Shown here: piece by piece, positions 2,731 through 49,752 of the stretch
How positions within the stretch are numbered: the stretch's first letter is position 1
Layout of the letters: each line of letters opens with the position of its first letter
IMG/VR virus record: IMGVR_UViG_3300046001_007123
Source of the DNA: a virus
Strand: one strand, 5' to 3'
Length of the DNA stretch: 64,000 nucleotides
Translations under genes and position numbers: made by a program
The notes under the pieces: generated by a model
Seen by the model: the letters and a program-made list of their open reading frames with translations, nothing else
Database searches by the model: none
Told to the model about the DNA's origin: nothing

Positions 2731-2951
2731 TTATGGAAAATAGAAGTAGACATTACGGAGACGTTGTAAAATGGATTGAAAAGGTAATTGATTCTTGTGA
2801 GACATATCAACAAACATTAGCAGCTAAAATGTTAATAGTTAATTTTGGTAAACAAATGTCTCGTAACAAAGTTGATACTAGATTAATGTGGGGTATAAGA
2901 TCTTCATTGGATCTTACATTAACTATTAAACGTGATAAATTGATAAATTGA
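2727..2951 (+). CDS. hypothetical protein
   Basis: 74-aa ORF with ATGA overlap with the upstream gene. Confidence 0.35.
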   Translation: MIMENRSRHYGDVVKWIEKVIDSCETYQQTLAAKMLIVNFGKQMSRNKVDTRLMWGIRSSLDLTLTIKRDKLIN

Positions 2952-2964
2952 TAAAACTTGCGGA

Positions 2965-3216
2965 ATGAATGGTAAACTAGTAAAATCACTTGGTGAATGG
3001 TTTGTTAAGTATGATAATGACGGACATATTGTACTTTACCCATTGTGCCCACAAACTTTAGTGTGGGCGAATAATCCATTGACCCAAAAGTTTATAAAAG
3101 AAGACATTGAGGTGGTTTTTTCTTTAATAGTTAAGGGTGAGTATTGTGAAACAAAAGAAATGTTGTTAAAAAACTATCAGGCAAAAATCACCTCCGTTGA
3201 TCACGAAACAATATAA
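2965..3216 (+). CDS. hypothetical protein
   Basis: 83-aa ORF in a same-strand array. Confidence 0.4.
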   Translation: MNGKLVKSLGEWFVKYDNDGHIVLYPLCPQTLVWANNPLTQKFIKEDIEVVFSLIVKGEYCETKEMLLKNYQAKITSVDHETI

Positions 3217-6458: not shown

Positions 6459-7721
6459 ATGATTAACCCAACAGGAAATAAATTAGAAAAAATTTTATTC
6501 GAGATCTTCGATAAATCTATCGAAAACGCCGATATATATAACCATAACAAAAGTTTATGGTTAATCTTTACCAATGATATGAAGTGGGTTGTTGAATACA
6601 CGGACACACAAACTCTGTGGTATAACTACCAATTCTTTAAGAATGAAATGGAACTTGTTGGTTTAGATTGTGTTACAAACAAAGACCTTATCCAAAAGTG
6701 GTTTGAAACAAGATTCCTTAAACCTAAGGTTGAAAAAACCATCCAGGATGGGGTAAAACACACCTTTTATCCAAATCGTGGTCAATGGGAAGGTGTTGAA
6801 GACACTATTCAAAATTGGGTGAAACACACCCATTTTTCTTTAAACCTATTAGACCCATCGTATCGTGTTGAAGACGCCATTAAAAATGGGGTGAAGAACA
6901 CCGGAAGAAATTATCACTATACGAGAACAGTTGAAGATACCATTCAAAATGGGGTGAAACACACCCATTTTTCTTTCAAAAAGGTCAACACAATAATTGA
7001 AGACACTATTCAAAATGGGGTGAAACACACCATACAACACGATCAAGATGTCCTTTTGTTGGTTGAAGATACCATTCAAAATGGTGTGAAACAAACTAAA
7101 GGTACTCTACGACATCCGGCATTCGTTGAAGATGCGGTTCAAAATGGAGTTATACATACGCAAGAAATTGATTGGAACCGTGATATCGGACTGGTTAAAG
7201 ACACCATTAAAAATGGGGTGAAAGACACCCAACGTGCTTTTGGTGAAAACAAATTACAAGTTGAAGACACCATTCAAAATGGGGTAAAGCACACATCATT
7301 AAAGCGTTTAGATCCATCGTATCGTGTTGAAGACGCCATTAAAAATGGTGTTAAAGAAGTGAAAGAAGTAAGTGAACTTAGTTTAGTAAGTGAAATATTT
7401 AAGGTTAATAGTAAAAGGGTAATTCAAAATGGGGTGAAGGAGACCACAACCAACAGATACCATCGTCGTAAGGAAGTTGAAGATACCATTGAAAATGGGG
7501 TGAAAAAAACTTCAGATAGACCTTTGGGGATAGAACTTGAGTGCATTAACGACATTATCCAAAATGGAGTGAAGTCCGTCTGTTTTGCTTATAATTGTGG
7601 CGATAATAGTGTTGAGGATATTATTGAAAATGGGGTGAAGTACGTTGATTTTGCTTTTGATCTTGGTTATTATGGTGATACTACGGTTGAGGATATTATT
7701 GAAAATGGTGAAAAAATATAG
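6459..7721 (+). CDS. tandem-repeat protein A (about 15 copies of [VI]EDTIQNGVK[HDE]T with 3-8-aa linkers)
   Basis: 90-aa N-terminal domain followed by imperfect tandem repeats. The DNA period is 48-57 nt. Confidence 0.6.
   Translation: MINPTGNKLEKILFEIFDKSIENADIYNHNKSLWLIFTNDMKWVVEYTDTQTLWYNYQFFKNEMELVGLDCVTNKDLIQKWFETRFLKPKVEKTIQDGVKHTFYPNRGQWEGVEDTIQNWVKHTHFSLNLLDPSYRVEDAIKNGVKNTGRNYHYTRTVEDTIQNGVKHTHFSFKKVNTIIEDTIQNGVKHTIQHDQDVLLLVEDTIQNGVKQTKGTLRHPAFVEDAVQNGVIHTQEIDWNRDIGLVKDTIKNGVKDTQRAFGENKLQVEDTIQNGVKHTSLKRLDPSYRVEDAIKNGVKEVKEVSELSLVSEIFKVNSKRVIQNGVKETTTNRYHRRKEVEDTIENGVKKTSDRPLGIELECINDIIQNGVKSVCFAYNCGDNSVEDIIENGVKYVDFAFDLGYYGDTTVEDIIENGEKI
6720..7718 (+). repeat. in-frame tandem coding repeats (unit about GTTGAAGATACCATTCAAAATGGGGTGAAACACACC)
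   Basis: The repeat unit is directly visible in the DNA. Third positions vary between copies. Confidence 0.7.
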
Positions 7722-7724
7722 AAG

Positions 7725-15731: not shown

Positions 15732-17642
15732 ATGAAATTAATTAAGGGGTTAATCCTTACAATGTTATTATCACTACCTTTTATAGGGTTATCACAAGTA
15801 CCTTCAGCACCATCTAATGGTTTGTGGGGTATCATTGCGTCTCAATATCAGATTGGGACTTCAGCACAAGGGTCAACAACCGCCAAAATTACACTACAAA
15901 ATACAACCCTAACAAAATTCGCTGGGGTTCAGCTTAGAGTATTTTATGATAAGGTAGCATTTACAAATGCAACGGTATCTTTGATAGGATCAACAACAAA
16001 CTTAGATCTTCAATATGTGACTAACACTGCGAATGGTTACATTACAATGACATTAAGTTACACTGGTCCAAGTTCTACGTACACTATACCAAACGGTGAA
16101 AAATTCTTAATCACATTTACTCACGCTCCAGCATCAACATTTAATAACTTATCAACAATAAGTAACTTAACTTGGACAGGAGTTCAAACGTTTACACCAT
16201 ACGCCGCAAAACAAGATGGTATGGATACAACTTTGAGTGTTCATAACTATGGTGGTGTGTTTACACCTGTAAACTTTGATTACCACGGAACATTTACAAA
16301 CGTAACTGGTACAGGAGCTAAAACATTAACTTTAGCGTTAGAGAAAAAACCATCAGGTGGATCAACTTGGACACAACATTCTGTTTATGTTACGGATAAT
16401 AACGGAGACTTTAATATTTCGGTTCCATTGGATACGACATATTGGGACGTTCGTTTAGCTGTTAAAGGAGATACTATGGGTGTTGGTAATGTTGTATCAA
16501 CAACAGATGCTCAATTAATAAACCAATGGGTTTTGGGTAACGGAACAATGACAGGGTTTGATTACTATACTGCAGATGTTAACGGATCTAACAACACAAC
16601 AATCTCAGACGTTTGGGGTGTGTTTGGTAGAGTTTCAGGAAGATTTACATCTTGGCCTAACAATACAAAAGATGTTAAATTCTTTACGTCAACGGAATAT
16701 ACGACAATTAATGGTTCGTCAACTAACTACACCTCATCAATTGCTGGTGTAACTAACTTTACATTTGATATCCTACCGGGTCAACCTGATTCAGTTGTTT
16801 ATTATGTGATGGTACCGGGTGATGCAAATGGGACAGGATATAATATGGCTCGTATAACCCCTATTGAGGTAGTGGTTGGTCCAATACCTGGTTTAGAAAA
16901 TCAAATATACAATGTTATTGACACTAAAGTGGAATACGATTTCCCAACACAATCTATTGAAATAAATGTTCCTAATATCTCAGTTCAGGCTGGTAACTTA
17001 GTTGAACTTCCTGTGAGTGTTATAACAAATGGAATTGAATTAAGTTCATTACAATTTGGTTTGAAATACAATGACACCTTATTACAATTTAAAGGTATTA
17101 CATCATCAGCCGAGGCAATGAAATGGATTTCATACGTTAACCCTAACGACAACGAGATTGAATGGGGAGGGTTTGATCCTACAAATAATGACAACACATT
17201 AAAAGATGGTAATCAAGTTGTTATAATACAATTCTTGGCGTTACAACCACAGAACTTATGGGATGCAAGTCCTTTGTACACTAATAGAAAATTTGCTGGA
17301 ACTACATACTCAAGTGATTTGTCTTTAACACCAACTAACGGAATCCTTCAGGTATTAAAAATGGAAGGTGGAAACATCTTGAACGATAACAATATGGAAG
17401 TATATCCTAATCCATATCAAGACGAAGTTACAATCACATTCAAAGTTGAGGAGACAACAAACGCAACACTATCGGTATATGATTTAGTTGGTAGAAAGTT
17501 AGTTACAATATTAGACACACAAATACCTGATGGGATTTATAACTACACTAAAAACTTAGGTGAGTTAGAACCAGGGGTTTACATAGTTAAACTTAGTGTT
17601 GAGAACGGAGTTCCATCATTCGAAAGAATAATTAAACAATAA
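15732..17642 (+). CDS. secreted protein with type IX secretion system C-terminal sorting domain
   Basis: Signal peptide MKLIKGLILTMLLSLPFIGLSQ. Thr/Asn-rich beta-rich body. The last 85 aa (VYPNPYQDEVTITF...LSVYDLVGRKL...GVYIVKLSVENG) match the Por/T9SS CTD. Confidence 0.75.
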   Translation: MKLIKGLILTMLLSLPFIGLSQVPSAPSNGLWGIIASQYQIGTSAQGSTTAKITLQNTTLTKFAGVQLRVFYDKVAFTNATVSLIGSTTNLDLQYVTNTANGYITMTLSYTGPSSTYTIPNGEKFLITFTHAPASTFNNLSTISNLTWTGVQTFTPYAAKQDGMDTTLSVHNYGGVFTPVNFDYHGTFTNVTGTGAKTLTLALEKKPSGGSTWTQHSVYVTDNNGDFNISVPLDTTYWDVRLAVKGDTMGVGNVVSTTDAQLINQWVLGNGTMTGFDYYTADVNGSNNTTISDVWGVFGRVSGRFTSWPNNTKDVKFFTSTEYTTINGSSTNYTSSIAGVTNFTFDILPGQPDSVVYYVMVPGDANGTGYNMARITPIEVVVGPIPGLENQIYNVIDTKVEYDFPTQSIEINVPNISVQAGNLVELPVSVITNGIELSSLQFGLKYNDTLLQFKGITSSAEAMKWISYVNPNDNEIEWGGFDPTNNDNTLKDGNQVVIIQFLALQPQNLWDASPLYTNRKFAGTTYSSDLSLTPTNGILQVLKMEGGNILNDNNMEVYPNPYQDEVTITFKVEETTNATLSVYDLVGRKLVTILDTQIPDGIYNYTKNLGELEPGVYIVKLSVENGVPSFERIIKQ

Positions 17643-19054: not shown

Positions 19055-20667
19055 AACTAAATGTATTCATATTATTGTTTTATTGCGTGTTTGGGTTCTT
19101 TAACCTGAATGCGCAATCTTACAATTATAGTTACTCTGATCCCTGTACGGGAAATCTTAAAACTATAGTCATACCGATAAATGGAAACGTAATAGTTTCA
19201 TACTACGGTGAAACGGGATCGTTTAGTCAAAACGATTTTACAAACGGGACATTTGAATCTTGGACTAATAACATATTTTCACAATATGGAACAAATAGTC
19301 CTTGCTCTGAAATAATAGGTTTGGGTACGGCAATTAACATAACCCAAGGAACAGCATTAAACGTAATCGGAATTCTTAATTCATTATCCACAATCTCAGA
19401 TTTAGCGGGGGGATCCACAAATTTAATAGGTGGGTCTGTAACTACTATTAATAATACAGGGAATGGAAATTCAAAGGGTAACGATAAGAAGGGGAATAAA
19501 TCCCAAAATGGAAGTGGAAATAATACTACAAATAATAATACCACAACCAATAATACTCAAAATCAAACGAATGGAACAGGTAACTCTACTCAAGGAGGTA
19601 CAACCACTTCTGGAACAAATGAAGGAGGTACAAACGGAGGAAATGGAACCACTAGTCAAAATGTTGGAACTCAAAATCCAACACAAGCAGGAGGAACTAC
19701 AACTCAAGGTGGATCAAATGAAACTGGAAATCAATCGACTAACCCGACTATAAATGGGGGAACTCAAACAACAGAACCAAATGGTGGTGGTCAAACAACT
19801 GAAACACCAATAAACAATCAAACAACAAGTGGAAATGGAAATAGTAGTAGTGAGCCTGGGAATGGGTCTAATGGTGGGGCAGGGAATAACGGGACTGGTT
19901 CGGGAAGTAATAAACCTGAGGAAAATAAAACTCCTGAAACAGGAAAAGAAGAAGGTGGACAAACAAATATAACAGGTGGTGCAACCACAACGGTAAAGGC
20001 AACCCCAACTAGTAAAGAAGGTGGTAAACCCACAATAGTCGCTAGTGGTGACTTTGTTGGGTTTAACTTTAGAGATTCTGAAGTGAATACAGGGTTAAAA
20101 GTAACAGGTGGGTATACTGCAATGAGATGGGATGGTAAAAGAAGTTCGGGGGTTTTAGGTGACTATACTTCAGCCCTTAGAGGTCCTAATATAACTGCGT
20201 TCTATGCTTTTATTAGACCTAAATCAATTGTGATTGGTTCTGGAACACTAACCATTGGGTTTGAAGGTAATAAGTCATTATACGGTACGGTAGCAATAGG
20301 ACAAATGTTTACGTTTAAGAAACCTAAATCTCTTAAACTTCTTTATATGGGGACGGTATCTTATGGAAATGTTTATAGAGAATCATTTTTGGGGACTGCA
20401 TTAATTGTTGGGGGGACTTACGATATGAGGATAGGTAAACGAATAGATGTTAAATTAATGAATTTATTTGTTTACGCTCCGTATGTTAGTTACTATAATG
20501 ATGTTGTATTGAAATCTCCTTATGTGATGTTACCAAGTATTGGTACAAATATTAAAATTACAAAGAAGTTCAAATTCAACATAAACGCAGGTGGTGCTTG
20601 GGATTTAAAAACAAGTGCTTTAAATTATACGGTAACGTGTGGAGCAAGAATGTTAGTAGGACAATAA
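19051..20667 (+). CDS. secreted N/G/T/S-rich low-complexity protein with beta-rich C-terminal domain
   Basis: Signal peptide. A 200-aa GNGT/NTT low-complexity tract. The C-terminal 200 aa have alternating hydrophobic residues. It could be an outer-membrane beta-barrel. Confidence 0.5.
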   Translation: MKLNVFILLFYCVFGFFNLNAQSYNYSYSDPCTGNLKTIVIPINGNVIVSYYGETGSFSQNDFTNGTFESWTNNIFSQYGTNSPCSEIIGLGTAINITQGTALNVIGILNSLSTISDLAGGSTNLIGGSVTTINNTGNGNSKGNDKKGNKSQNGSGNNTTNNNTTTNNTQNQTNGTGNSTQGGTTTSGTNEGGTNGGNGTTSQNVGTQNPTQAGGTTTQGGSNETGNQSTNPTINGGTQTTEPNGGGQTTETPINNQTTSGNGNSSSEPGNGSNGGAGNNGTGSGSNKPEENKTPETGKEEGGQTNITGGATTTVKATPTSKEGGKPTIVASGDFVGFNFRDSEVNTGLKVTGGYTAMRWDGKRSSGVLGDYTSALRGPNITAFYAFIRPKSIVIGSGTLTIGFEGNKSLYGTVAIGQMFTFKKPKSLKLLYMGTVSYGNVYRESFLGTALIVGGTYDMRIGKRIDVKLMNLFVYAPYVSYYNDVVLKSPYVMLPSIGTNIKITKKFKFNINAGGAWDLKTSALNYTVTCGARMLVGQ

Positions 20668-20675
20668 TAACAATA

Positions 20676-21644
20676 ATGTTATTTGTGATTCCGTTTATGG
20701 GGTTTACTCAAACCTTTACATATTCGGGATACATTTATAATGCGGATGGAACAGGCGCGGTTAATGTACCTGTTAAGTTGTATAAAAGAACAACACCGGT
20801 AATGAATGGATTTACCAATCAACAAAACTTTAATGGGCACTCATATTATAGATCAACAGGGTCAATGACTTGGACGGACGCAAGACAAGCCTGTATTAAT
20901 ATGGGGGGACATTTAGTTACCTCAACATCATTAGCCGAAAACAATTTCCTATTCAGCCTTTGGCCAAATGGGTGGATCGGATTAACCGATGAGGTCAATG
21001 AAGGTGTGTGGAGATGGGTTACGGGTGAACCTTATTCTTGGTCGTATTGGAATAGTGGAGAACCAAACAATGCCGGTAACGAGGACTACATTCAATTCGT
21101 CGGAGGAGGTAGATGGAATGATTTACCTAACACATCATTACCATATGTTTTGGAGTTTGAATATATTGTGACTTTTACCCCTTGGGTGTTACATCAAACG
21201 GTTTACACTAACTCATCGGGGTACTATAACTTTTCACAACCGACAAGTCCTGCGGTTGAGTGGTACATACAATATGATGCTCCAACACCGGTAACTACAC
21301 TACAAACTACGGATATGGTAGAAGTTTCTAAATTAATATTAGGTGTTACACCAATTAAAAGTATTCATTACCACAGATATGATGTGAACTATGATGGGAG
21401 AATAAACGTTGCCGATCAAAATTATATTAATCTTAGACGATATGGTTTATTAGGGGGTTGGATTAATATGAGTCCATCCAGATTATATACAACCGCACAA
21501 TACACAACATTAACGACAAATACATCAGATCTAAGATCAACAATACCTGGTGTGTCATCAATAACAATAAACTCACCTGTAAGTGGGGGATCACAAAACT
21601 ATTATCTGATCGCTCCTGGGTATAAAACAACCGTATCATATTAA
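20676..21644 (+). CDS. secreted C-type lectin-domain protein with dockerin-like Ca-binding repeat
   Basis: Signal peptide MLFVIPFMGFTQT. CTLD signature WIGLTDEVNEGVWRWVTGEPYSWSYWNSGEPNN...EDYIQF...WNDLPN. DVNYDGRINVADQNYINLRRYGL matches the dockerin consensus DxNxDGxVNxxD. Confidence 0.65.
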   Translation: MLFVIPFMGFTQTFTYSGYIYNADGTGAVNVPVKLYKRTTPVMNGFTNQQNFNGHSYYRSTGSMTWTDARQACINMGGHLVTSTSLAENNFLFSLWPNGWIGLTDEVNEGVWRWVTGEPYSWSYWNSGEPNNAGNEDYIQFVGGGRWNDLPNTSLPYVLEFEYIVTFTPWVLHQTVYTNSSGYYNFSQPTSPAVEWYIQYDAPTPVTTLQTTDMVEVSKLILGVTPIKSIHYHRYDVNYDGRINVADQNYINLRRYGLLGGWINMSPSRLYTTAQYTTLTTNTSDLRSTIPGVSSITINSPVSGGSQNYYLIAPGYKTTVSY

Positions 21645-35527: not shown

Positions 35528-35540
35528 TATATTTATTAAT
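35528..35540 (+). promoter_or_regulatory. TATATTTATTAAT box abutting ATG
   Basis: The same 13-mer also sits immediately before ATG 48462 and, at a short distance, before ATG 45194. Near variants precede 53915, 44667 and 54787. Confidence 0.4.
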
Positions 35541-43879: not shown

Positions 43880-44485
43880 ATGGAAGGATATATCTATTTG
43901 GGTGAATACTATGATGTTCTCGGAAGAGAACTCGACACAACCGACAAGAAGATCGGGAAAACAATCTCTTTAACTCAAAGAGAGTATCAACTTAACAGAA
44001 CAAAATCTCCAATAGGATATAAGATTATCTCTGCGTATATGGTAGACGATATGGATAAGGTGGAAAAACTATTACACGCCATCCTCGATAGTCGAAGATT
44101 GGTTGGGGAGTGGTTTAAAGATGATGAGGACACATTAACAGGTGAGTTCATCAACTTTATGAATATCTATGGGGCTACCACTATGGATATGAAACAACTC
44201 AAAGAAGAACAAATCTCATTAAGTGGTGATGAAAGATTAGTGAAGATCGCCGACTCATTTGGTAAAGATACGATGTTGATCCGAACATACAAAGGAATCG
44301 ACTACGACGTACTATTAGATTCAAAAGGAATATTACACTTCAACGGAGAAACCTTTGACACTCCAAATAAGTTCTACAATAGTGGTTTACTTAAGTTCTT
44401 AACTGGTAAACGAGGTAATAGTGGTACCAATCAGGTAACTCAATTTAAAGTTAAGGAAACGAAGGAATCACTAAGAGAATTATAA
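43880..44485 (+). CDS. T5orf172 (GIY-YIG-like) domain protein
   Basis: GYIYLGEYYD...KKIGKTISLTQREYQLNRTKSPIGYKII...VEKLLHAILDSRRLVGEWF follows the T5orf172 pattern (GxVYI..KIG.T....R...L....P.....E..LH..F...R..GEWF). Confidence 0.65.
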   Translation: MEGYIYLGEYYDVLGRELDTTDKKIGKTISLTQREYQLNRTKSPIGYKIISAYMVDDMDKVEKLLHAILDSRRLVGEWFKDDEDTLTGEFINFMNIYGATTMDMKQLKEEQISLSGDERLVKIADSFGKDTMLIRTYKGIDYDVLLDSKGILHFNGETFDTPNKFYNSGLLKFLTGKRGNSGTNQVTQFKVKETKESLREL

Positions 44486-44504: not shown

Positions 44505-44612
44505 AGTCAGGTGGCGGAATTGGTAACGTACATATAATGAGAGTTCTGCAGGCTCGCCCGAAAAGTAAGTTATATGGTGGTATAAATACAGGTTCGAATC
44601 CTGTCCTGACTA
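44505..44612 (+). ncRNA. tRNA-derived element A (tRNA-Leu-type acceptor/D arm and T arm/acceptor; 57-nt non-tRNA centre)
   Basis: 5' AGTCAGGTGGCGGAATTGGTAACG ... 3' ACAGGTTCGAATCCTGTCCTGACTA. The centre contains a 7-bp CATATAA/TTATATG stem and will not fold as an anticodon arm. Confidence 0.5.
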
Positions 44613-44614
44613 CA

Positions 44615-44650
44615 TAAAAATCCTTCACAATGGTGGGGGATTTTTATTTT
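44615..44650 (+). terminator. rho-independent terminator (ATCCTTCAC-loop-GTGGGGGAT, T-run)
   Basis: Follows element A directly. The next ATG is at 44667. Confidence 0.6.
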
Positions 44651-44666
44651 AGTATATTTATTAGAT

Positions 44667-45122
44667 ATGAATCTTAAGGAACAAATAAAGAAAGTATTAA
44701 GGGAAGAGACAAACATTAAACCTGCGTTAAGAAATCTAATTGATATGGCGGTTGATGGATTAGACGACTTATATTATGATTGGGCAGAATATGATTGTGG
44801 TATGGGAGTATGTTGTGACCCATATGCAATAGGATTTGTAAAACAAACAAGTGAGTATAACGATTACACCTTCAAGTTGGTTGATGGAGATAAATGGGAT
44901 GTGTATGGGGATTACCCTGAAGAATTTATTGATGACTTACCTGAAGTATGTTATGACACACCCGACCTTAGAAACCCAAACTTCAATACAATAATTTTAT
45001 ATGAAGAATTGGCTAGCGAAATTGAGGATTACTTCGGATCGGTTAAAAATTGGGAATCACCTCTATTGGATTTAATAAACGAAAAGTATCATAGTCACGC
45101 AACTAGAATATTATTCATATAA
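44667..45122 (+). CDS. family-2 member (MNLKEQIKKVLREETN)
   Basis: 151-aa ORF. TATATTTATTAGAT box abuts the ATG. Confidence 0.5.
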   Translation: MNLKEQIKKVLREETNIKPALRNLIDMAVDGLDDLYYDWAEYDCGMGVCCDPYAIGFVKQTSEYNDYTFKLVDGDKWDVYGDYPEEFIDDLPEVCYDTPDLRNPNFNTIILYEELASEIEDYFGSVKNWESPLLDLINEKYHSHATRILFI

Positions 45123-45193
45123 TTCACAATAAAAATCACAAAATAATAGATGTTTTCGTTATTCCATATATTTATTAATTAAAGTAGACAACT

Positions 45194-45805
45194 ATGGAAT
45201 TAAATAGATTTAAACAATTATTAGAATCAACAATGGGCGATGCCAAACCATTGATCTCAGAACAAGAAGAAATGGGTTATACGGTCAAAAATGACGCAAC
45301 TTTTGAAAATGCAACTAGTGAGGCTAAACCTGAGTTAAAGATTTTTAAAGGAACTAAGTTTGTTAAAAACGGTGATGTGTTAGTCGCTAACACTAAGTAT
45401 CAATTTGTTGATAGTAGAACTGGGGTTAAACTAGGTTATGGACCAAAAGATGCGTTAAAATTTGAGTACGCGGGTAAAGTTACTTACAACTGCGCCGAGG
45501 GTAAATTTACGGTAAACGCATCTAAAGATAAGTATTTCCAACAATACGGCGGTCTAACAAAAGCTTTAGCTCCATTATGTAAAACAAAGGTTGCGCCAAC
45601 GAACACCGAAACCAAATCAAACCATATATGTGACACAGATAAAACAAGTCAATTACAGACAGGTAGATCTTTCAAGTATTGTAAAAATGGTGAGGATTAT
45701 TATTTCATCGGAACTGCAGGTGAGTTCCAAACTAAATACCCTGAATGGACACAGGCGAAAGGTACAGGTTTAGAATCAATCAAGACAAAGATATTCTATA
45801 AGTAA
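45194..45805 (+). CDS. hypothetical Cys-containing protein. Its N-terminal stretch (FKQLLESTMGDAKPLISEQEE) recurs in the small ORF 57476..57649
   Basis: 203-aa ORF. The shared module is visible by eye. Confidence 0.45.
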   Translation: MELNRFKQLLESTMGDAKPLISEQEEMGYTVKNDATFENATSEAKPELKIFKGTKFVKNGDVLVANTKYQFVDSRTGVKLGYGPKDALKFEYAGKVTYNCAEGKFTVNASKDKYFQQYGGLTKALAPLCKTKVAPTNTETKSNHICDTDKTSQLQTGRSFKYCKNGEDYYFIGTAGEFQTKYPEWTQAKGTGLESIKTKIFYK

Positions 45806-45832
45806 AATAACATTACATAAAATAAATAATTT

Positions 45833-45868
45833 AATCCTCCACTTGTAAAGATGGGGGATTTTTTATAT
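45833..45868 (+). terminator. rho-independent terminator (AATCCTCCA-loop-TGGGGGATT, T6)
   Basis: GC stem with T/G wobble plus T-run. Confidence 0.65.
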
Positions 45869-45878
45869 ATTAGCGGTA

Positions 45879-46280
45879 ATGAAAGATCTGACGAAATATA
45901 TTGACTCATTAGTGGAGGGAAATGTGGATAACTATGAGATAAACTTCAAAGATGGGGCGTATGTTGTTACGATCATAATAGATATTTCAGATAAAACTTT
46001 CCCTGCATATCTTCTTGTGGATATGTTAGCTATGTCACGTAGAGATATAGTTAGAAGAATGTTAAGTGGTTATTTACCTAAAAATTTATTTGTTGTAGAT
46101 CACAAAGTGGTTGGTCAGGAGATAAATGTAAAATTAACCTATCCCGATGACATTAGAATAACAGGGTATGTTGATATGGACGACATTCAACCACTAAACA
46201 TCGGTGACTACATTAATATGAGAGTAGATCCTTGTAATATAAACGACATATCTACATTCGTAACATATGATCCATTATGA
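45879..46280 (+). CDS. hypothetical protein
   Basis: 133-aa ORF. Confidence 0.4.
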   Translation: MKDLTKYIDSLVEGNVDNYEINFKDGAYVVTIIIDISDKTFPAYLLVDMLAMSRRDIVRRMLSGYLPKNLFVVDHKVVGQEINVKLTYPDDIRITGYVDMDDIQPLNIGDYINMRVDPCNINDISTFVTYDPL

Positions 46281-46531
46281 ATAAGTTAGAGAACATAATG
46301 TTGAGATACTTTGAGTTAATAAACTCATTACCTTACGATGAGGTAAAGATGGCTACGAGTTTAATGGAACCAATGGGGATTGTGGTATTAACAATATACG
46401 TTAAAACGATGGATGAAAAATACCTGTATCAAAAAATGATAAATAGGAAAAGAGTAATTGATATATTAAATGGTGAGATGTCATATATGTTCCCATATGT
46501 ATTTTTAATGAAGTGTAAAGTAAAAATTTAA
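46277..46531 (+). CDS. hypothetical protein
   Basis: 84-aa ORF. Confidence 0.35.
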   Translation: MNKLENIMLRYFELINSLPYDEVKMATSLMEPMGIVVLTIYVKTMDEKYLYQKMINRKRVIDILNGEMSYMFPYVFLMKCKVKI

Positions 46532-46533
46532 AA

Positions 46534-46695
46534 ATGAAAAAGGAATTAAAAGAAGATCTAATAGCATTAACAATATTGGTGGTGATGTTTTCGGGGTTGG
46601 CAATGGGAGTGTTAGGTGGATCATTAACTAGTTCGTTAGGTGTTGCTTTATTTGTGGTGTCGATAATAGTGGCTTACTGGGTAACATTAGATTGA
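46534..46695 (+). CDS. 53-aa two-TM membrane peptide (not in ORF track)
   Basis: MKKELKEDLIALTILVVMFSGLAMGVLGGSLTSSLGVALFVVSIIVAYWVTLD*. ATG 3 nt after the upstream stop. Confidence 0.35.
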   Translation: MKKELKEDLIALTILVVMFSGLAMGVLGGSLTSSLGVALFVVSIIVAYWVTLD

Positions 46696-46765
46696 TGATT
46701 CCGATTGCATAACCTATAATTGGTTTTGGAAATAAAAAAATAATGTATTATATTTGAAAAATATT

Positions 46766-46910
46766 AGTCAGGTGGCGGAATGGTAGACGCTAACCAAGTA
46801 AATCCAAAAGACAGCCTTGCTACTGCAATAGGTGTAGGGGATATGGATTTAATAGTATAATGTGCAGAATGATTACTAACGATTTACAGGTTCGAATCCT
46901 GTCCTGACTA
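46766..46910 (+). ncRNA. tRNA-derived element B (95-nt centre)
   Basis: Same 25-nt 5' half and 26-nt 3' half as element A. The centre has AAATCC/GGATTT and TTGC/GCAA stems. Confidence 0.5.
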
Positions 46911-46932
46911 CAAAAAATTAAAACAAATAGAT

Positions 46933-47049
46933 ATGGACTTTGATGAAGAAAAAGAATGGGATAGACTGTGGATAAAACATAGAAATGCAATGATTCATAT
47001 GTTAATATGTGGTGTGATACTCGGTTGGTGTATTGGAATTTATTGTTAA
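46933..47049 (+). CDS. 38-aa hydrophobic peptide (not in ORF track)
   Basis: MDFDEEKEWDRLWIKHRNAMIHMLICGVILGWCIGIYC*. Lies between elements B and C. Confidence 0.3.
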   Translation: MDFDEEKEWDRLWIKHRNAMIHMLICGVILGWCIGIYC

Positions 47050-47058
47050 CTAACAAAT

Positions 47059-47095
47059 AGTCAGGTGGTGGAATTGGTAGACTCAGTCCTGACTA
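47059..47095 (+). ncRNA. tRNA-derived element C, collapsed to a 37-nt minihelix
   Basis: AGTCAGGTGGTGGAATTGGTAGAC-TCAG-TCCTGACTAC. The 5' half is joined almost directly to the acceptor 3' strand. Confidence 0.45.
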
Positions 47096-47110
47096 CAAAA
47101 AATTAAAGAT

Positions 47111-47344
47111 ATGGAACAAGAGGAAAAACAAAAATTGATCAATCTAATGTTTGAGATGGTTTTAGCGACAACTAATGACCCTGTTTTTTGTAAAAGACCT
47201 AGAGGTGAGAGAATGGCTTGGGTTGCAAATAATCTAAGAGATATTGGAATTGACACACACCCAATCGGGATGAGTTGGGGTGTAATGGTAAGTGAAGACT
47301 TTAGAGATACCGTTGAAGTCATCAAAGATAATTTAGATAATTAA
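47111..47344 (+). CDS. hypothetical protein
   Basis: 77-aa ORF between elements C and D. Confidence 0.4.
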   Translation: MEQEEKQKLINLMFEMVLATTNDPVFCKRPRGERMAWVANNLRDIGIDTHPIGMSWGVMVSEDFRDTVEVIKDNLDN

Positions 47345-47348
47345 TCAT

Positions 47349-47445
47349 AGTCAGGTGGCGGAATGGTAGACGCTGATATTTGAGACTACAAGAAACCTAG
47401 GAACGGAAGTGGCAGCTCATACAGGTTCGAATCCTGTCCTGACTA
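47349..47445 (+). ncRNA. tRNA-derived element D (47-nt centre)
   Basis: Conserved halves. The centre has a CCUAGG palindrome. Confidence 0.5.
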
Positions 47446-47514
47446 CGAAATCCTGAAAATACATACGTCCGTTTACGGCTATGGAAGTGGTTGACAGCTG
47501 GAAAGACAGCAAAT

Positions 47515-47636
47515 AGTCAGGTGGCGGAAGTGGTGTACGCAGTGGTGTGTTAAATGTGGGAATAGACATAATCCCTAACCCTGAAAGGGGCTAACTGCTT
47601 GTCTCTTAGCTACAGGTTCGATTCCTGTCCTGACTA
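47515..47636 (+). ncRNA. tRNA-derived element E (71-nt centre; T-loop variant TTCGATT)
   Basis: Conserved halves. The centre has a CCCU-GAAA-GGGG GNRA hairpin. Confidence 0.5.
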
Positions 47637-47654
47637 CAATTAAAAATAAATGTT

Positions 47655-47912
47655 ATGAATATTAAACAATTAAAAGAATCAATCTCAAATCTTCCTGATG
47701 AAATGGAAGTGGTTTTACAAAAAGATAGTGAAGGTAACGGGTATAGTCCACTTAAAGGTGTTGACTCAGATGCTGTTTATATTCCTTATAATACGTGGTC
47801 AGGAGATGTTTATTCAATGGGATGGACTTCAGATGAAGCTGATATGTCAGATAAACAATGGCAAGAAATAAAGTCAAAACCAAGAACTTTGATTTTATAT
47901 CCTGTCAATTAA
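47655..47912 (+). CDS. hypothetical protein
   Basis: 85-aa ORF between elements E and F. Confidence 0.4.
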   Translation: MNIKQLKESISNLPDEMEVVLQKDSEGNGYSPLKGVDSDAVYIPYNTWSGDVYSMGWTSDEADMSDKQWQEIKSKPRTLILYPVN

Positions 47913-47921
47913 CATTAACAT

Positions 47922-48022
47922 AGTCAGGTGGCGGAATTGGTAGACGTATCTCACTCAGGTGTAGATTTGGTGAAACATAAAATGTATCGAATACATTACA
48001 GGTTCGAATCCTGTCCTGACTA
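47922..48022 (+). ncRNA. tRNA-derived element F (50-nt centre with a CTCAGGT Leu-CAG-like loop and an AAUGUAU-CGA-AUACAUU hairpin)
   Basis: Nearest to a real type-II tRNA-Leu. The putative anticodon stem has only 3-4 bp and 15 extra nt. Confidence 0.5.
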
Positions 48023-48038
48023 CAAATAATAAAAACAT

Positions 48039-48422
48039 ATGAATGGATTAGAATTTAAAGACAAACTCAAGGAATATATTAATTCGGAGTATGAAAGATT
48101 ACAGGAACAAAGAAAGGATCCTAACCATAATAATTCATTAGAGTGGGCATACTTACAAAAATGTGAAGCTGAACAACTATTGTTACAATATATAGAAACA
48201 TTAAAGTACACCAAAAAGAGATGGTTTAGAAAACCTGAAACACTATATAAAGATGTTAAACTATGGGAGTTTGACCGTTTTTGGTCCAAGTATTCTGAAT
48301 CTTATCGTAACCATCCAGCAGACAGTGCCGAAGCCAACCTAAGAAGTTGGTACAGATATAAGGCACCATATTCTTACGGTAATAACATCATTCATAAAAT
48401 ATTAAAAGATTCCCTCATATAA
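48039..48422 (+). CDS. hypothetical protein
   Basis: 127-aa ORF. Confidence 0.4.
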   Translation: MNGLEFKDKLKEYINSEYERLQEQRKDPNHNNSLEWAYLQKCEAEQLLLQYIETLKYTKKRWFRKPETLYKDVKLWEFDRFWSKYSESYRNHPADSAEANLRSWYRYKAPYSYGNNIIHKILKDSLI

Positions 48423-48450
48423 CAATGGGGGGATTTTTTGTTTACGGGTA
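48411..48450 (+). terminator. rho-independent terminator (TCCCTC-loop-GGGGGGA, T6)
   Basis: Overlaps the 3' end of the 48039 gene. Confidence 0.6.
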
Positions 48451-48824: not shown

Positions 48825-49276
48825 ACCTACAGGAACACATAAGAAGAGTACTAAAGGAAGAGACGTTAAAGACCAAATTAATTCACAACATCAAGAATGA
48901 TGGTTGGTTTAATGTTTCGCCATATGTAGGTGGTGATGATAATCTTAAAAAAGTTACTGACATACATAACGCGTTAGGTTTTATGAAGTTGTTTTTAGAT
49001 CTAAAAGGAGTTGTAAGCGAACAAGAACCACTAATGAGGTTATATAAAAATGAGAATGGGGAAAACGTATTTGTTATAAGAACTATATGGAATGAAAATA
49101 CGATTTACGTTAATTATGATTTAATTTTTAGACCATTAAAGGTTTTTTTAGAAACGGATACAAATATGAAGACAAGAGATTTTTTAGACAAATGGTTTAA
49201 AAATAAGTACGGTATTATAGTTAATGATTGGGTAAATCATTTCTCAAAGGATGATTATATAGGGATGATTAATTAA
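48821..49276 (+). CDS. family-2 member (MNLQEHIRRVLKEETLK)
   Basis: ATGA junction. Confidence 0.5.
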   Translation: MNLQEHIRRVLKEETLKTKLIHNIKNDGWFNVSPYVGGDDNLKKVTDIHNALGFMKLFLDLKGVVSEQEPLMRLYKNENGENVFVIRTIWNENTIYVNYDLIFRPLKVFLETDTNMKTRDFLDKWFKNKYGIIVNDWVNHFSKDDYIGMIN

Positions 49277-49752
49277 TACTCATCGGAGATCAATCTCTCA
49301 TAGTTTCTAGCAACCCCAACCAAATCATAGTCATCCAAGCATCTCCAAGAGTTAACAAATAAGATACGATTATATCCGATCTCAGACACGTTCTCATAAT
49401 ATTCAAGAGATTCGTCATCAATAATAAGAAACTTCGTGTAACCCTCAGATTTACGTTTAATAACAAACCCAGCACGATCATCGGGATCACCAAAGGTAAG
49501 ACCATTCACAATGATACCTCTACTAATCAAGAAATCCTTAAACTCCTCACCATCATTAGATCCGTTCCAATAAGAGCGACCCCAAGTAGATACAATACAT
49601 ATATGAGCATCAAACATTGTGATGATACTATTAAGGACTTCAACAGATTTAGGGATGAAAGAATGTTTACCATCAGGATCACGGTCCTTTAGTTTAAGGT
49701 AACTAACAAGTACACCATCAATGTCAAGATATATAGTAAACGGTTTTTCCAT
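49273..49752 (-). CDS. HAD-superfamily phosphatase
   Basis: MEKPFTIYLDIDGVL (motif I DxDG), CIVSTW (motif II), K, IIDDE (motif IV). The upstream TTTGTACT-ATGGAAAAA copies the + strand leader. Confidence 0.65.
   Translation of the reverse strand: MEKPFTIYLDIDGVLVSYLKLKDRDPDGKHSFIPKSVEVLNSIITMFDAHICIVSTWGRSYWNGSNDGEEFKDFLISRGIIVNGLTFGDPDDRAGFVIKRKSEGYTKFLIIDDESLEYYENVSEIGYNRILFVNSWRCLDDYDLVGVARNYERLISDEY

Follow-up and report, generated by a model that had tools for sequence, protein, structure and literature searches.

A stretch of viral DNA 64,000 nucleotides (nt) long (IMG/VR virus record IMGVR_UViG_3300046001_007123; hereafter the window) carries six related elements, A to F, that share ends of leucine-tRNA type and differ in their centres. 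Probably, though with real room for doubt, these elements are small RNAs scaffolded on a tRNA and processed as one, whose constant ends serve at the same time as recombination arms. The chassis is selected as RNA, its flanks are those of tRNA maturation and some inserts are conserved and structured, a combination that scaffolded small RNAs fit best. An earlier note on this DNA had offered three possible roles. Each of them gains some support: a scaffolded small RNA from strand-specific selection at the RNA level and compensatory changes in two insert classes, processing punctuation by RNase P and RNase Z from flanks like those of real tRNAs and from open reading frames (ORFs) starting 10-20 nt downstream, and a recombination site from breakpoint enrichment and the replacement of centres at orthologous sites. 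The three roles are facets of one system, not alternatives. The six elements lie where the note had placed them, all on the + strand and 37 to 145 nt long:

Element A, 44505-44612, + strand: 108 nt; class A insert made of a 7-bp helix (P1), a hairpin (P2) and a purine-rich strand; 43.6 bits against Rfam family RF00005.
Element B, 46766-46910, + strand: 145 nt; 95-nt insert with two hairpins.
Element C, 47059-47095, + strand: 37 nt; internally deleted copy.
Element D, 47349-47445, + strand: 97 nt; 47-nt insert; RF00005, 38.6 bits.
Element E, 47515-47636, + strand: 122 nt; 72-nt insert that includes a GAAA-capped hairpin; T loop TTCGATT; RF00005, 35.1 bits.
Element F, 47922-48022, + strand: 101 nt; RF00005, 40.1 bits.

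When the window was scanned with mismatches allowed, the 16-nt 5' motif AGTCAGGTGGCGGAAT was found six times at no more than one mismatch (0.19 occurrences being expected at up to three mismatches) and the 25-nt 3' motif five times at no more than one mismatch (0.00 expected). The common start and end described earlier stand with three reservations: element A has GGTAACGT in place of GGTAGACG, element E has GGAAGTGGTGTACG, and element C runs from the 5' acceptor strand and D arm through TCAG directly to TCCTGACTA, the 3' acceptor strand. The T arm of C is entirely gone, which marks it as an internally deleted copy, probably a dead one. The scaffold ends of A, B, D, E and F consist of a tRNA-Leu-type 5' half and of a T arm, 3' acceptor strand and A73. 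The core of a canonical tRNA is present throughout, apart from the T arm of C: a 7-bp acceptor stem, a D arm with G18G19, a T arm with a TTCRANY loop, U8, A14 and position 48. The canonical anticodon arm (5-bp stem, 7-nt loop, U33 and R37 at positions 27-43) is absent from the window elements, and their lengths depart from the roughly 74-90 nt of canonical tRNAs. The inserts, 0 to 95 nt long, are mutually unrelated among the six. Elements A, F, D and E score 35-44 bits against RF00005, above its gathering score of 29, with the acceptor, D and T arms aligned confidently and 38-64 nt skipped or inserted at the place of the anticodon arm; the model skips this arm or marks its pairs as non-standard, class A having there a 7-bp helix capped by a junction. 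B and C gave no RF00005 match. The nearest of the six to a real tRNA is F, which resembles tRNA-Leu(CAG) in its CUCAGGU loop and in a 7-bp hairpin like a variable arm, and departs from it in a defective stem (3 of 5 pairs) and in 14 extra nt; this loop on its broken stem and the GNRA tetraloop of element E (CCCU-GAAA-GGGG) are both as first described. G+C content is 41-49% in the elements and 32.8% in the window. ARAGORN in default mode called no tRNA, and no tmRNA, in the window. The derivation of the ends from tRNA-Leu, the missing anticodon arm and the verdict that these are neither ordinary type II tRNAs nor group I introns (see below) were borne out, and the outcome named in advance as contrary, a tRNA finder folding the centres canonically, was obtained with no finder.

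The elements belong to a very large family and are not a peculiarity of one genome, as emerged from the comparative search for the conserved halves that the earlier note had proposed. Relatives were collected by exact match to the 3' end of the scaffold, so that the sampling is anchored on one 3' sequence; the fetched stretches of phage and metagenome contigs are numbered as L loci (L008, L010, L066 and so on), and the counts of elements, classes and loci, which derive from the matches listed, are lower bounds. A 22-nt version of the 3' end occurs in at least 119 IMG/VR contigs and a 23-nt version in at least 120 metagenome contigs, some contigs (for example one of 53,608 nt) probably being in both sets. 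No GenBank phage had both halves of the scaffold. A fragment of a host tRNA or attachment site was considered as the source and rejected, the 3' end being found in none of the isolate genomes (185,579 species) and in only 18 contigs of metagenome-assembled genomes, several of them Bacteroidota. At least 413 unique elements were recognized in 281 loci, with a median length of 104 nt (the longest 273 nt by the loosest parse) and up to 12 copies per fetched locus. They fall into at least 309 insert classes, 251 of which are singletons. In 98 of the 281 loci canonical tRNA genes are present as well, with the elements standing among them. The two kinds of gene are distinct: where the acceptor strand is CCTGACT, the elements of the first 137 loci have a median of 106 nt, against 72-87 nt and varied acceptors for the other tRNA-like genes, and the anticodon arms of genuine tRNA-Leu genes in these contigs are normal and their acceptor stems diverse. 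ARAGORN misses the family elements or gives them spurious isotypes. The carriers are uncultivated phages, whose elements sit in clusters of tRNA genes and in accessory regions; where hosts can be guessed, they are freshwater Bacteroidota. Full-text literature searches returned no description of such a family, and this group of phage tRNA-scaffold RNAs is apparently undescribed.

Some outlying members deserve mention. The tRNA cluster of the 735-kb huge phage LR756501 (locus L281, LR756501.1 201047-207076, reverse complement) contains at 2917-3027 an unannotated, family-like element of 111 nt with T as discriminator; at 1577-1667 of the same locus lies a 91-nt tRNA-like gene with an apparent insertion in its D loop. 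A 90-nt class found in L065 (4813-4902), L076 and L107 carries, on a stem lengthened to 9 bp, a perfect CUUAAGU (Leu-UAA) loop, and is called by ARAGORN as a tRNA-Leu whose anticodon is displaced to position 38. This class may represent a step between tRNAs that decode and the scaffold RNAs.

Since the search fixed the T stem and the acceptor stem on their 3' sides, only the remaining parts of the scaffold are informative on selection, and these vary in the manner of a folded RNA. Among 165 contexts, 127 have ACA at positions 49-51 of the T stem. The other 38 are variants, and 36 of these read GCA, ACG or ATA, which keep the three pairs as G.U, an effect that holds for RNA of the + strand and not of the opposite one. 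T stands at position 48 in 82-83% of elements, a preference that fits the A15:U48 pair of tRNA-Leu. The D stems occur in many complementary forms (GCGG, GTGT, GCTT, ACTC, GCTC and others), and among D arms that depart from GCG a 4-bp stem forms in 24 of 64, whereas 1000 permutations gave a mean of 11.6 and a maximum of 22. Within class A the D-stem pair 12:25 is GC, UA or AU. The acceptor stem varies in step as well: in the LR756501 element it is AGTTAAG/CTTAACT, two compensatory pairs away from AGTCAGG/CCTGACT while the D and T arms are the same, and the variants of L011 and L034 have TGTCAGG/CCTGACA and TGTAAGG/CCTTACA. Some members have the insert not behind the D arm but within the D loop, as expected if only the tRNA-like core must be preserved. 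Read as patterns of substitution, these data show the acceptor stem, D arm and T arm, U8, the D-loop GG, U48 and the T loop to be kept by selection acting on the + strand transcript. They also bear on the notion that the elements are decaying pseudogenes, dead copies of tRNA-Leu that drift neutrally in a hyperplastic region. Such a history would suit F, which looks like a damaged tRNA-Leu(CAG), the deletion remnant C and a window devoid of intact tRNAs; it is hard to reconcile with pair-preserving variation, with the conserved flank signals and insert covariation described below, or with a scaffold that is nearly identical over hundreds of otherwise unrelated contigs in which the acceptors of genuine tRNA-Leu genes are diverse. 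As an account of the family decay is scarcely credible and we regard it as excluded, but it could hold for single copies such as C.

The centres, which had been described as hypervariable, are indeed unrelated within the window; across the family they are more than merely hypervariable, being class-specific conserved modules. Class A, which includes element A, was found in 25 IMG/VR loci, and its members occupy 13 flank contexts without detectable DNA similarity to one another. In an alignment of 12 sequences the 7-bp helix P1, which replaces the anticodon stem, has 5 of its 7 pairs changed on both sides; 96% of the alignment cells are paired, against about 30% when the partners are slid, and none of 500 shuffles reached the score observed for the four-helix structure. 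The P2 hairpin inside P1 folds with different stems (GAGTT/GGCTC, GGGTT/AGCCC, GAGC/GCTC, GCTG/CAGC) in 15 of 17 members. Element B has a single relative, the 146-nt element of L196, with compensatory changes in both hairpins. Covariation of this kind shows the class A and class B inserts to be domains that are both conserved and structured. Among the single window sequences, F folds better than its shuffles (z-score -2.06). Captured, spacer-like sequences were rejected as the source of the inserts: 19-22-mers from the centres of D, E and F are unmatched in IMG/VR, and all 25 matches to the class A pattern are the elements themselves.

The anticodon-arm remnants of some inserts could be taken to mean that the elements are intron-bearing tRNA-Leu genes, whose inserts some activity of phage or host would splice out, leaving tRNAs able to decode. 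With introns allowed, ARAGORN reads element A as a tRNA-Leu(GAG) with a 27-nt intron at 37/38, class A keeps NAG followed by A at 37/38, and Leu-type loop sequences are retained in F and in the classes of L065 and L010. On B, D, E and F, however, the calls of the same program disagree in isotype and in intron position, and the inserts show no enrichment of Leu anticodon-loop motifs (1.2-fold, z at most 1.6). An intron of archaeal type was rejected, there being no bulge-helix-bulge, the 5' site of A lying inside P2 and most class A members having C33. Group I introns were rejected likewise: RF00028 matched nothing in the window and none of the elements of 18 loci, and the inserts fall far short of the roughly 200 nt or more expected of an intron with the P1-P9 catalytic core. 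With some inserts sitting in the D loop besides, we consider a splicing origin quite improbable. A tmRNA was also tried and rejected, as the 3:70 pair is U:A and not G3:U70, RF00023 gave no match and the tmRNA mode of ARAGORN returned nothing. Both models do recognize their targets in this material. Locus L008 has at 7609-8193 (- strand) a phage tmRNA (RF00023, 49 bits; G3.U70; tag reading frame) that is unrelated to the AGTCAGG family and whose T-loop region is interrupted by a true group I intron detected by RF00028 (98 bits).

The flanks of the elements, which lie outside the search pattern at positions -1, -2 and +1 to +4, were compared with those of 201 canonical tRNA genes of the same contigs. 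Upstream, T occupies position -1 in 79% of elements and 67% of tRNA genes, and A occupies position -2 in 71% and 56%. Downstream, the corresponding figures are 98% and 100% for C at +1, 57% and 61% for A at +2, 73% and 72% for A at +3, and 69% and 60% for A at +4. With U-1, an encoded C74 and an A-rich trailer, the elements bear the same end signals as real tRNA genes. (The 201 canonical genes come from loci L001-L160, L036, L048, L057, L070 and L119 among them; only 14 encode the full CCA.) Copies point the same way in every multi-copy locus (100 of 100), and 455 canonical tRNAs share the orientation of the elements against 4 that do not. We infer from these features that the elements are processed by RNase P and the tRNA 3' pathway.

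The surroundings of the window elements suggest how they might be transcribed. The neighbouring features are, in order:

43880-44485, + strand: T5orf172/MUG113 gene, GIY-YIG-like and of homing-endonuclease type (PF10544, 3.9e-08; PF13455, 2.3e-10), ending 19 nt upstream of A.
44614-44647, + strand: hairpin like an intrinsic terminator, followed by a T run, directly after element A.
46725-46756, + strand: promoter-like motif TTTG-N20-TATATTTG, a pattern match of Bacteroidota type only, ending 9 nt upstream of B.
46933-47049, + strand: ORF of 38 amino acids (aa) with a hydrophobic C-terminus, between B and C.
47111-47344, + strand: 77-aa ORF (ORFan), between C and D.
47655-47912, + strand: 85-aa ORF (ORFan), between E and F.
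48039-48422, + strand: 127-aa ORF (ORFan), last gene of the B-F unit.
48411-48443, + strand: terminator-like hairpin ending GGGGGGATTTTTT, which closes the B-F unit; read from the sequence and not called by the terminator scan.

The motif before B was recognized from TTTG/TAnnTTTG, which we take to be the Bacteroidota promoter consensus. The order is B, ORF38, C, ORF77, D, E, ORF85, F, ORF127, with gaps of 4-22 nt except for one of 69 nt between D and E, so that the alternation with tiny ORFs pointed out by the earlier note is as it had said. All ORFs around the elements are ORFans; relatives of the B-F operon sought through the 127-aa ORF were not found, and the 38-aa ORF had no exact match in the metagenome contigs. 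In the family at large a same-strand ORF starts most often 10-20 nt downstream of an element (46 of 159); promoter and terminator signals are scarce, with TAnnTTTG in the 45 nt before only 18 of 206 elements and a terminator-like hairpin after only 4 of 207.

The mechanism that we propose can be stated on this basis. On a leucine-tRNA chassis, a class-specific insert would take the place of the anticodon and variable arms. Elements and the small ORFs next to them would share transcripts: B to F would make up one unit, from the promoter-like motif before B to the terminator-like hairpin after the last ORF, and A would lie at the 3' end of the endonuclease-like gene's transcript, just before the terminator. 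The host's tRNA maturation enzymes would then excise each element, RNase P cutting after U-1 and 3' processing taking place at the encoded C74 before CA is added; the mature product would accumulate as a stable L-shaped RNA with the insert as its specificity module, and the same cuts would release the ORFs as mRNAs with short leaders.

If that last step were the whole purpose, the elements would be pure punctuation, handles in cis for cutting polycistronic transcripts, with inserts as filler and the excised RNAs as by-products. The spacing would suit this well, the ORFs lying 4-22 nt from the window elements and family ORF starts peaking just downstream, as would the tRNA-like flanks, the weak average structure of the centres and the 251 of 309 insert classes that are singletons. 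RNase P needs no more than an acceptor/T-arm minihelix, but conservation here extends to the D arm, U48 and the elbow; inserts of 50-150 nt have not been lost, and those of classes A and B, found in contexts unrelated to one another, are conserved and show compensatory changes. Element A, moreover, stands just before a terminator and has no downstream ORF to release. Punctuation as the sole role is for these reasons unlikely, and a product that is itself a scaffolded RNA accounts better for what is conserved.

The constant ends have a second property. In an all-against-all comparison of the loci, 102 of 618 internal ends of homology fall in elements, which make up 1.85% of the bases, an enrichment of about 9-fold. 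The window and L010 share 195 bp at 92% identity, comprising the 3' end of one element, the 38-aa ORF and 12 nt from the start of the element that follows; the centres flanking this shared cassette differ between the two, and the L010 slot homologous to element C holds a 70-nt element. At an orthologous site in L022, L065, L107, L076, L104, L051 and L095 the flanks are about 90% identical over 500 bp and 450 bp, while the alignment stops some 15 nt into the element and resumes some 23 nt before its end, the centres (160, 90, 93, 110 and 97 nt) being unrelated. A whole element can move as well. L148 and L066 are collinear at 75-78% identity, and a class A element 95% identical between them occupies different intergenic slots; in L066 it lies at 7439-7547, in an insertion block that also brings an 85-aa HNH endonuclease gene (7176-7432), and in L148 (1320-1457, - strand orientation) it has an extra hairpin in the D loop and its first two bases overlap the stop of the upstream gene. 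These comparisons show inserts to have been replaced at orthologous sites and ORF cassettes bounded by half-elements to have moved between genomes; the invariant 25-nt ends clearly act as portable junctions for homology and recombination.

Breakpoint enrichment and the mobility of the class A element between slots, once together with an HNH gene, invite a reading confined to DNA, in which the ends are recombination or homing sites for GIY-YIG, HNH and T5orf172 endonucleases and the resemblance to tRNA is mere ancestry. The T5orf172 gene upstream of A and the recurrence of endonuclease-like genes near elements speak for it too. These genes nevertheless account for only about 7% of 94 non-redundant upstream ORFs, a DNA site has no need of co-orientation with tRNAs, and neither variation restricted to G.U on the + strand transcript (36 of 38) nor covariation in the D and acceptor stems is predicted by recognition of DNA. 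A role at the DNA level alone is therefore very improbable, and we retain the scaffolded small RNA, with recombination as a second use of its ends.

Several observations weigh against this interpretation. Conservation of the 3' strand is there by construction, since every locus was retrieved through that strand by exact matching. Among the 413 elements D, E and F each form a class of their own, so that nothing in the sample shows their inserts to be functional. As a population the centres are only mildly structured (mean z -0.9, p = 1e-4), and single-sequence folds of A, C, D and E are no better than shuffles (z -0.2 to -0.95). The inserts have no motif common to all, the enriched k-mers being displaced pieces of D arms, and contain no Rfam family in 18 loci at gathering score or in the window at E values up to 1-10. 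A role as antisense regulators was rejected: complementarity of the centres does not exceed chance 10-13-mers, either in the window or in 1.2 Mb of DNA from related phages whose elements had been masked. No protein partner is linked to the elements across loci, the best family being present in 16 of 137. With neither partner protein nor RNA family, antisense target or motif, it is conservation that supports the functional part of the argument. Processing, stability, CCA addition and aminoacylation are all predictions.

As to aminoacylation, the critical determinants of leucyl-tRNA synthetase (LeuRS) are A73 and the core contacts U8-A14, G18-U55 and G19-C56, and the anticodon stem-loop is dispensable, its whole deletion costing only 2.5-fold in affinity (PMC2377443). 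The identity set, A15-U48 included, is present in full in the scaffold sequence. The combination R1:U72 plus A73 found in the scaffold recurs in 24 of 28 genuine phage tRNA-Leu genes; G1.U72 or A1:U72 occurs in 70 of the 201 canonical tRNA genes. Since the conserved part is what LeuRS, RNase P and the CCA-adding enzyme recognize, the elements may be leucylated, and leucylation without decoding is plausible. In the window no synthetase, CCA-adding enzyme or RNA ligase appeared among the 25 Pfam families listed, of 32, from a scan of 91 ORFs.

Which function the inserts would serve can be addressed by speculation. The anti-phage tRNases PrrC, PARIS AriB, PtuAB and Schlafen recognize and cut the anticodon arm (PMC13056530), which is exactly the arm that the diversified insert replaces. 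From this a decoy role can be imagined: phages of freshwater Bacteroidota would maintain in the elements a 'display library' of structured RNA modules, for which the leucine-tRNA chassis would provide processing of tRNA type, stability and perhaps leucylation without decoding. The modules would act as decoys, sponges or inhibitors of host factors directed at tRNA, and the ends would allow swaps between co-infecting phages. We hold this to be doubtful, and the Acb3 CBASS inhibitor and the RNA-repair-type HAD gene of the window (see below) are weak contextual hints.

The window is phage DNA, and the host is probably a member of the Bacteroidota. It encodes a protein with a sorting domain of the type IX secretion system (T9SS), a lysozyme, proteins of homing-endonuclease types and an Acb3 CBASS inhibitor; its thymidylate synthase is nearest to Flavobacterium-phage versions, and one gene is shared with uncultured huge phages. 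A known phage was rejected as the source, as neither the element region nor the first 25 kb had any megablast match except in the thymidylate synthase gene. Two regions, 15732-17642 and 20598-21644, encode T9SS C-terminal sorting and cohesin domains, and a C-type lectin domain with a dockerin (E = 0.003, below threshold); these are surface or adhesion-type modules and point to a Bacteroidota host. The Acb3 homologue (PF25187, 1.6e-30) is an unplaced ORF among the 91 scanned. HNH, GIY-YIG and non-specific endonucleases, a Clp protease and two glycosyltransferases are encoded as well. A stand-alone HAD domain of the kind found in 'Swiss-army-knife' RNA-repair proteins (PF18143, 8e-10) lies at 49273-49749 on the - strand, 1.25 kb downstream of element F; it is among the few minus-strand genes of the window, and judging by its domain the product may be a polynucleotide 3'-phosphatase.

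The terminator-like hairpin at 48411-48443 is one copy of a repeated motif, TGGGGGATTTTT, present at 44634, 45852, 48427, 50116, 52590 and 56575 (6 occurrences against 1.1 expected). A second motif, TATATTTATTA, is found at 35528, 44653, 45167, 48449, 51658, 54772 and 58588, among others (23 counted against 12.8 expected). At 44634, 48427 and 52590 the two form a composite in which a hairpin ending TGGGGGATTTTT is followed within about 10-20 nt by TATATTTATTA, and in the two composites that could be read an ATG stands a few bases past TATATTTATTA. This arrangement resembles a PeSL-type cassette of terminator plus promoter, and the leaders that result may be very short.

If the elements are made and processed as predicted, nature uses the tRNA-scaffold trick of RNA engineers at large scale, with one chassis and hundreds of inserts across at least 240 phage contigs. 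The family would add a sizeable class of phage non-coding RNA that tRNA finders and Rfam families leave unclassified, and would be a concrete, testable case of RNA-domain exchange through short conserved arms. It would also raise the question of whether non-decoding, possibly leucylated tRNA mimics are used against hosts; were the display-library conjecture true, the elements would be an RNA counterpart of hypervariable anti-defence protein loci. In practice, counts of phage 'tRNAs' from these environments need care, and the family offers ready inserts and insertion points, at the anticodon-arm position and in the D loop, for the design of RNA scaffolds.

Among known systems, the stable RNAs C and D (species 1 and 2) of phage T4 are small non-tRNA RNAs of its tRNA cluster, co-transcribed and processed with the tRNAs. 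The present elements resemble them in being encoded among phage tRNA genes and co-oriented with them (in 98 of 281 element loci); the T4 RNAs, however, are two fixed genes of one lineage, with no shared tRNA-Leu chassis, hyperdiverse inserts or known exchange of inserts. The tRNA-like RNAs of murine gammaherpesvirus-68 are eight genes transcribed by Pol III, each with pre-miRNA hairpin cargo downstream. There, too, a non-decoding tRNA-like unit is handled by host tRNA enzymes and serves to express other small RNAs, although the virus is eukaryotic and the cargo lies downstream of the tRNA-like unit instead of inside it. With tmRNA the elements share a tRNA-like acceptor/T-arm domain whose halves are split by a large inserted domain; unlike tmRNA, they have a full D arm and inserts of 16-146 nt, and lack G3:U70, a tag frame and pseudoknots. 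The PeSL cassettes of T4-type phages (PMC2839356, PMC4122927) are likewise short conserved repeats between genes, placed beside small ORFs in hyperplastic regions; where related phages differ by an insertion, deletion or replacement, its limits are marked by these repeats, as they are by the elements. A PeSL consists of a promoter and a terminator stem-loop without a variable module, whereas the elements are tRNA-like. The bacterial Y-RNA-like YrlA (PMC4201824) is a non-coding RNA in which a module mimicking tRNA, with T arm, D arm and acceptor-like stem, is joined to another functional domain; it differs in being permuted, in ending in a Ro-binding stem and in its link to Ro60, and no Ro60/TROVE gene was seen in the proteome scan of the window. 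The same architecture is found in the engineered 'tRNA scaffold' for the expression of recombinant RNA (cited in PMC3753655), which keeps the acceptor, D and T arms, by which enzymes of the cell process and stabilise it, and exchanges the anticodon arm for an arbitrary structured RNA. That is a laboratory construct; the phage family would be its natural counterpart, with many copies per genome, hundreds of inserts and a predicted route of processing.

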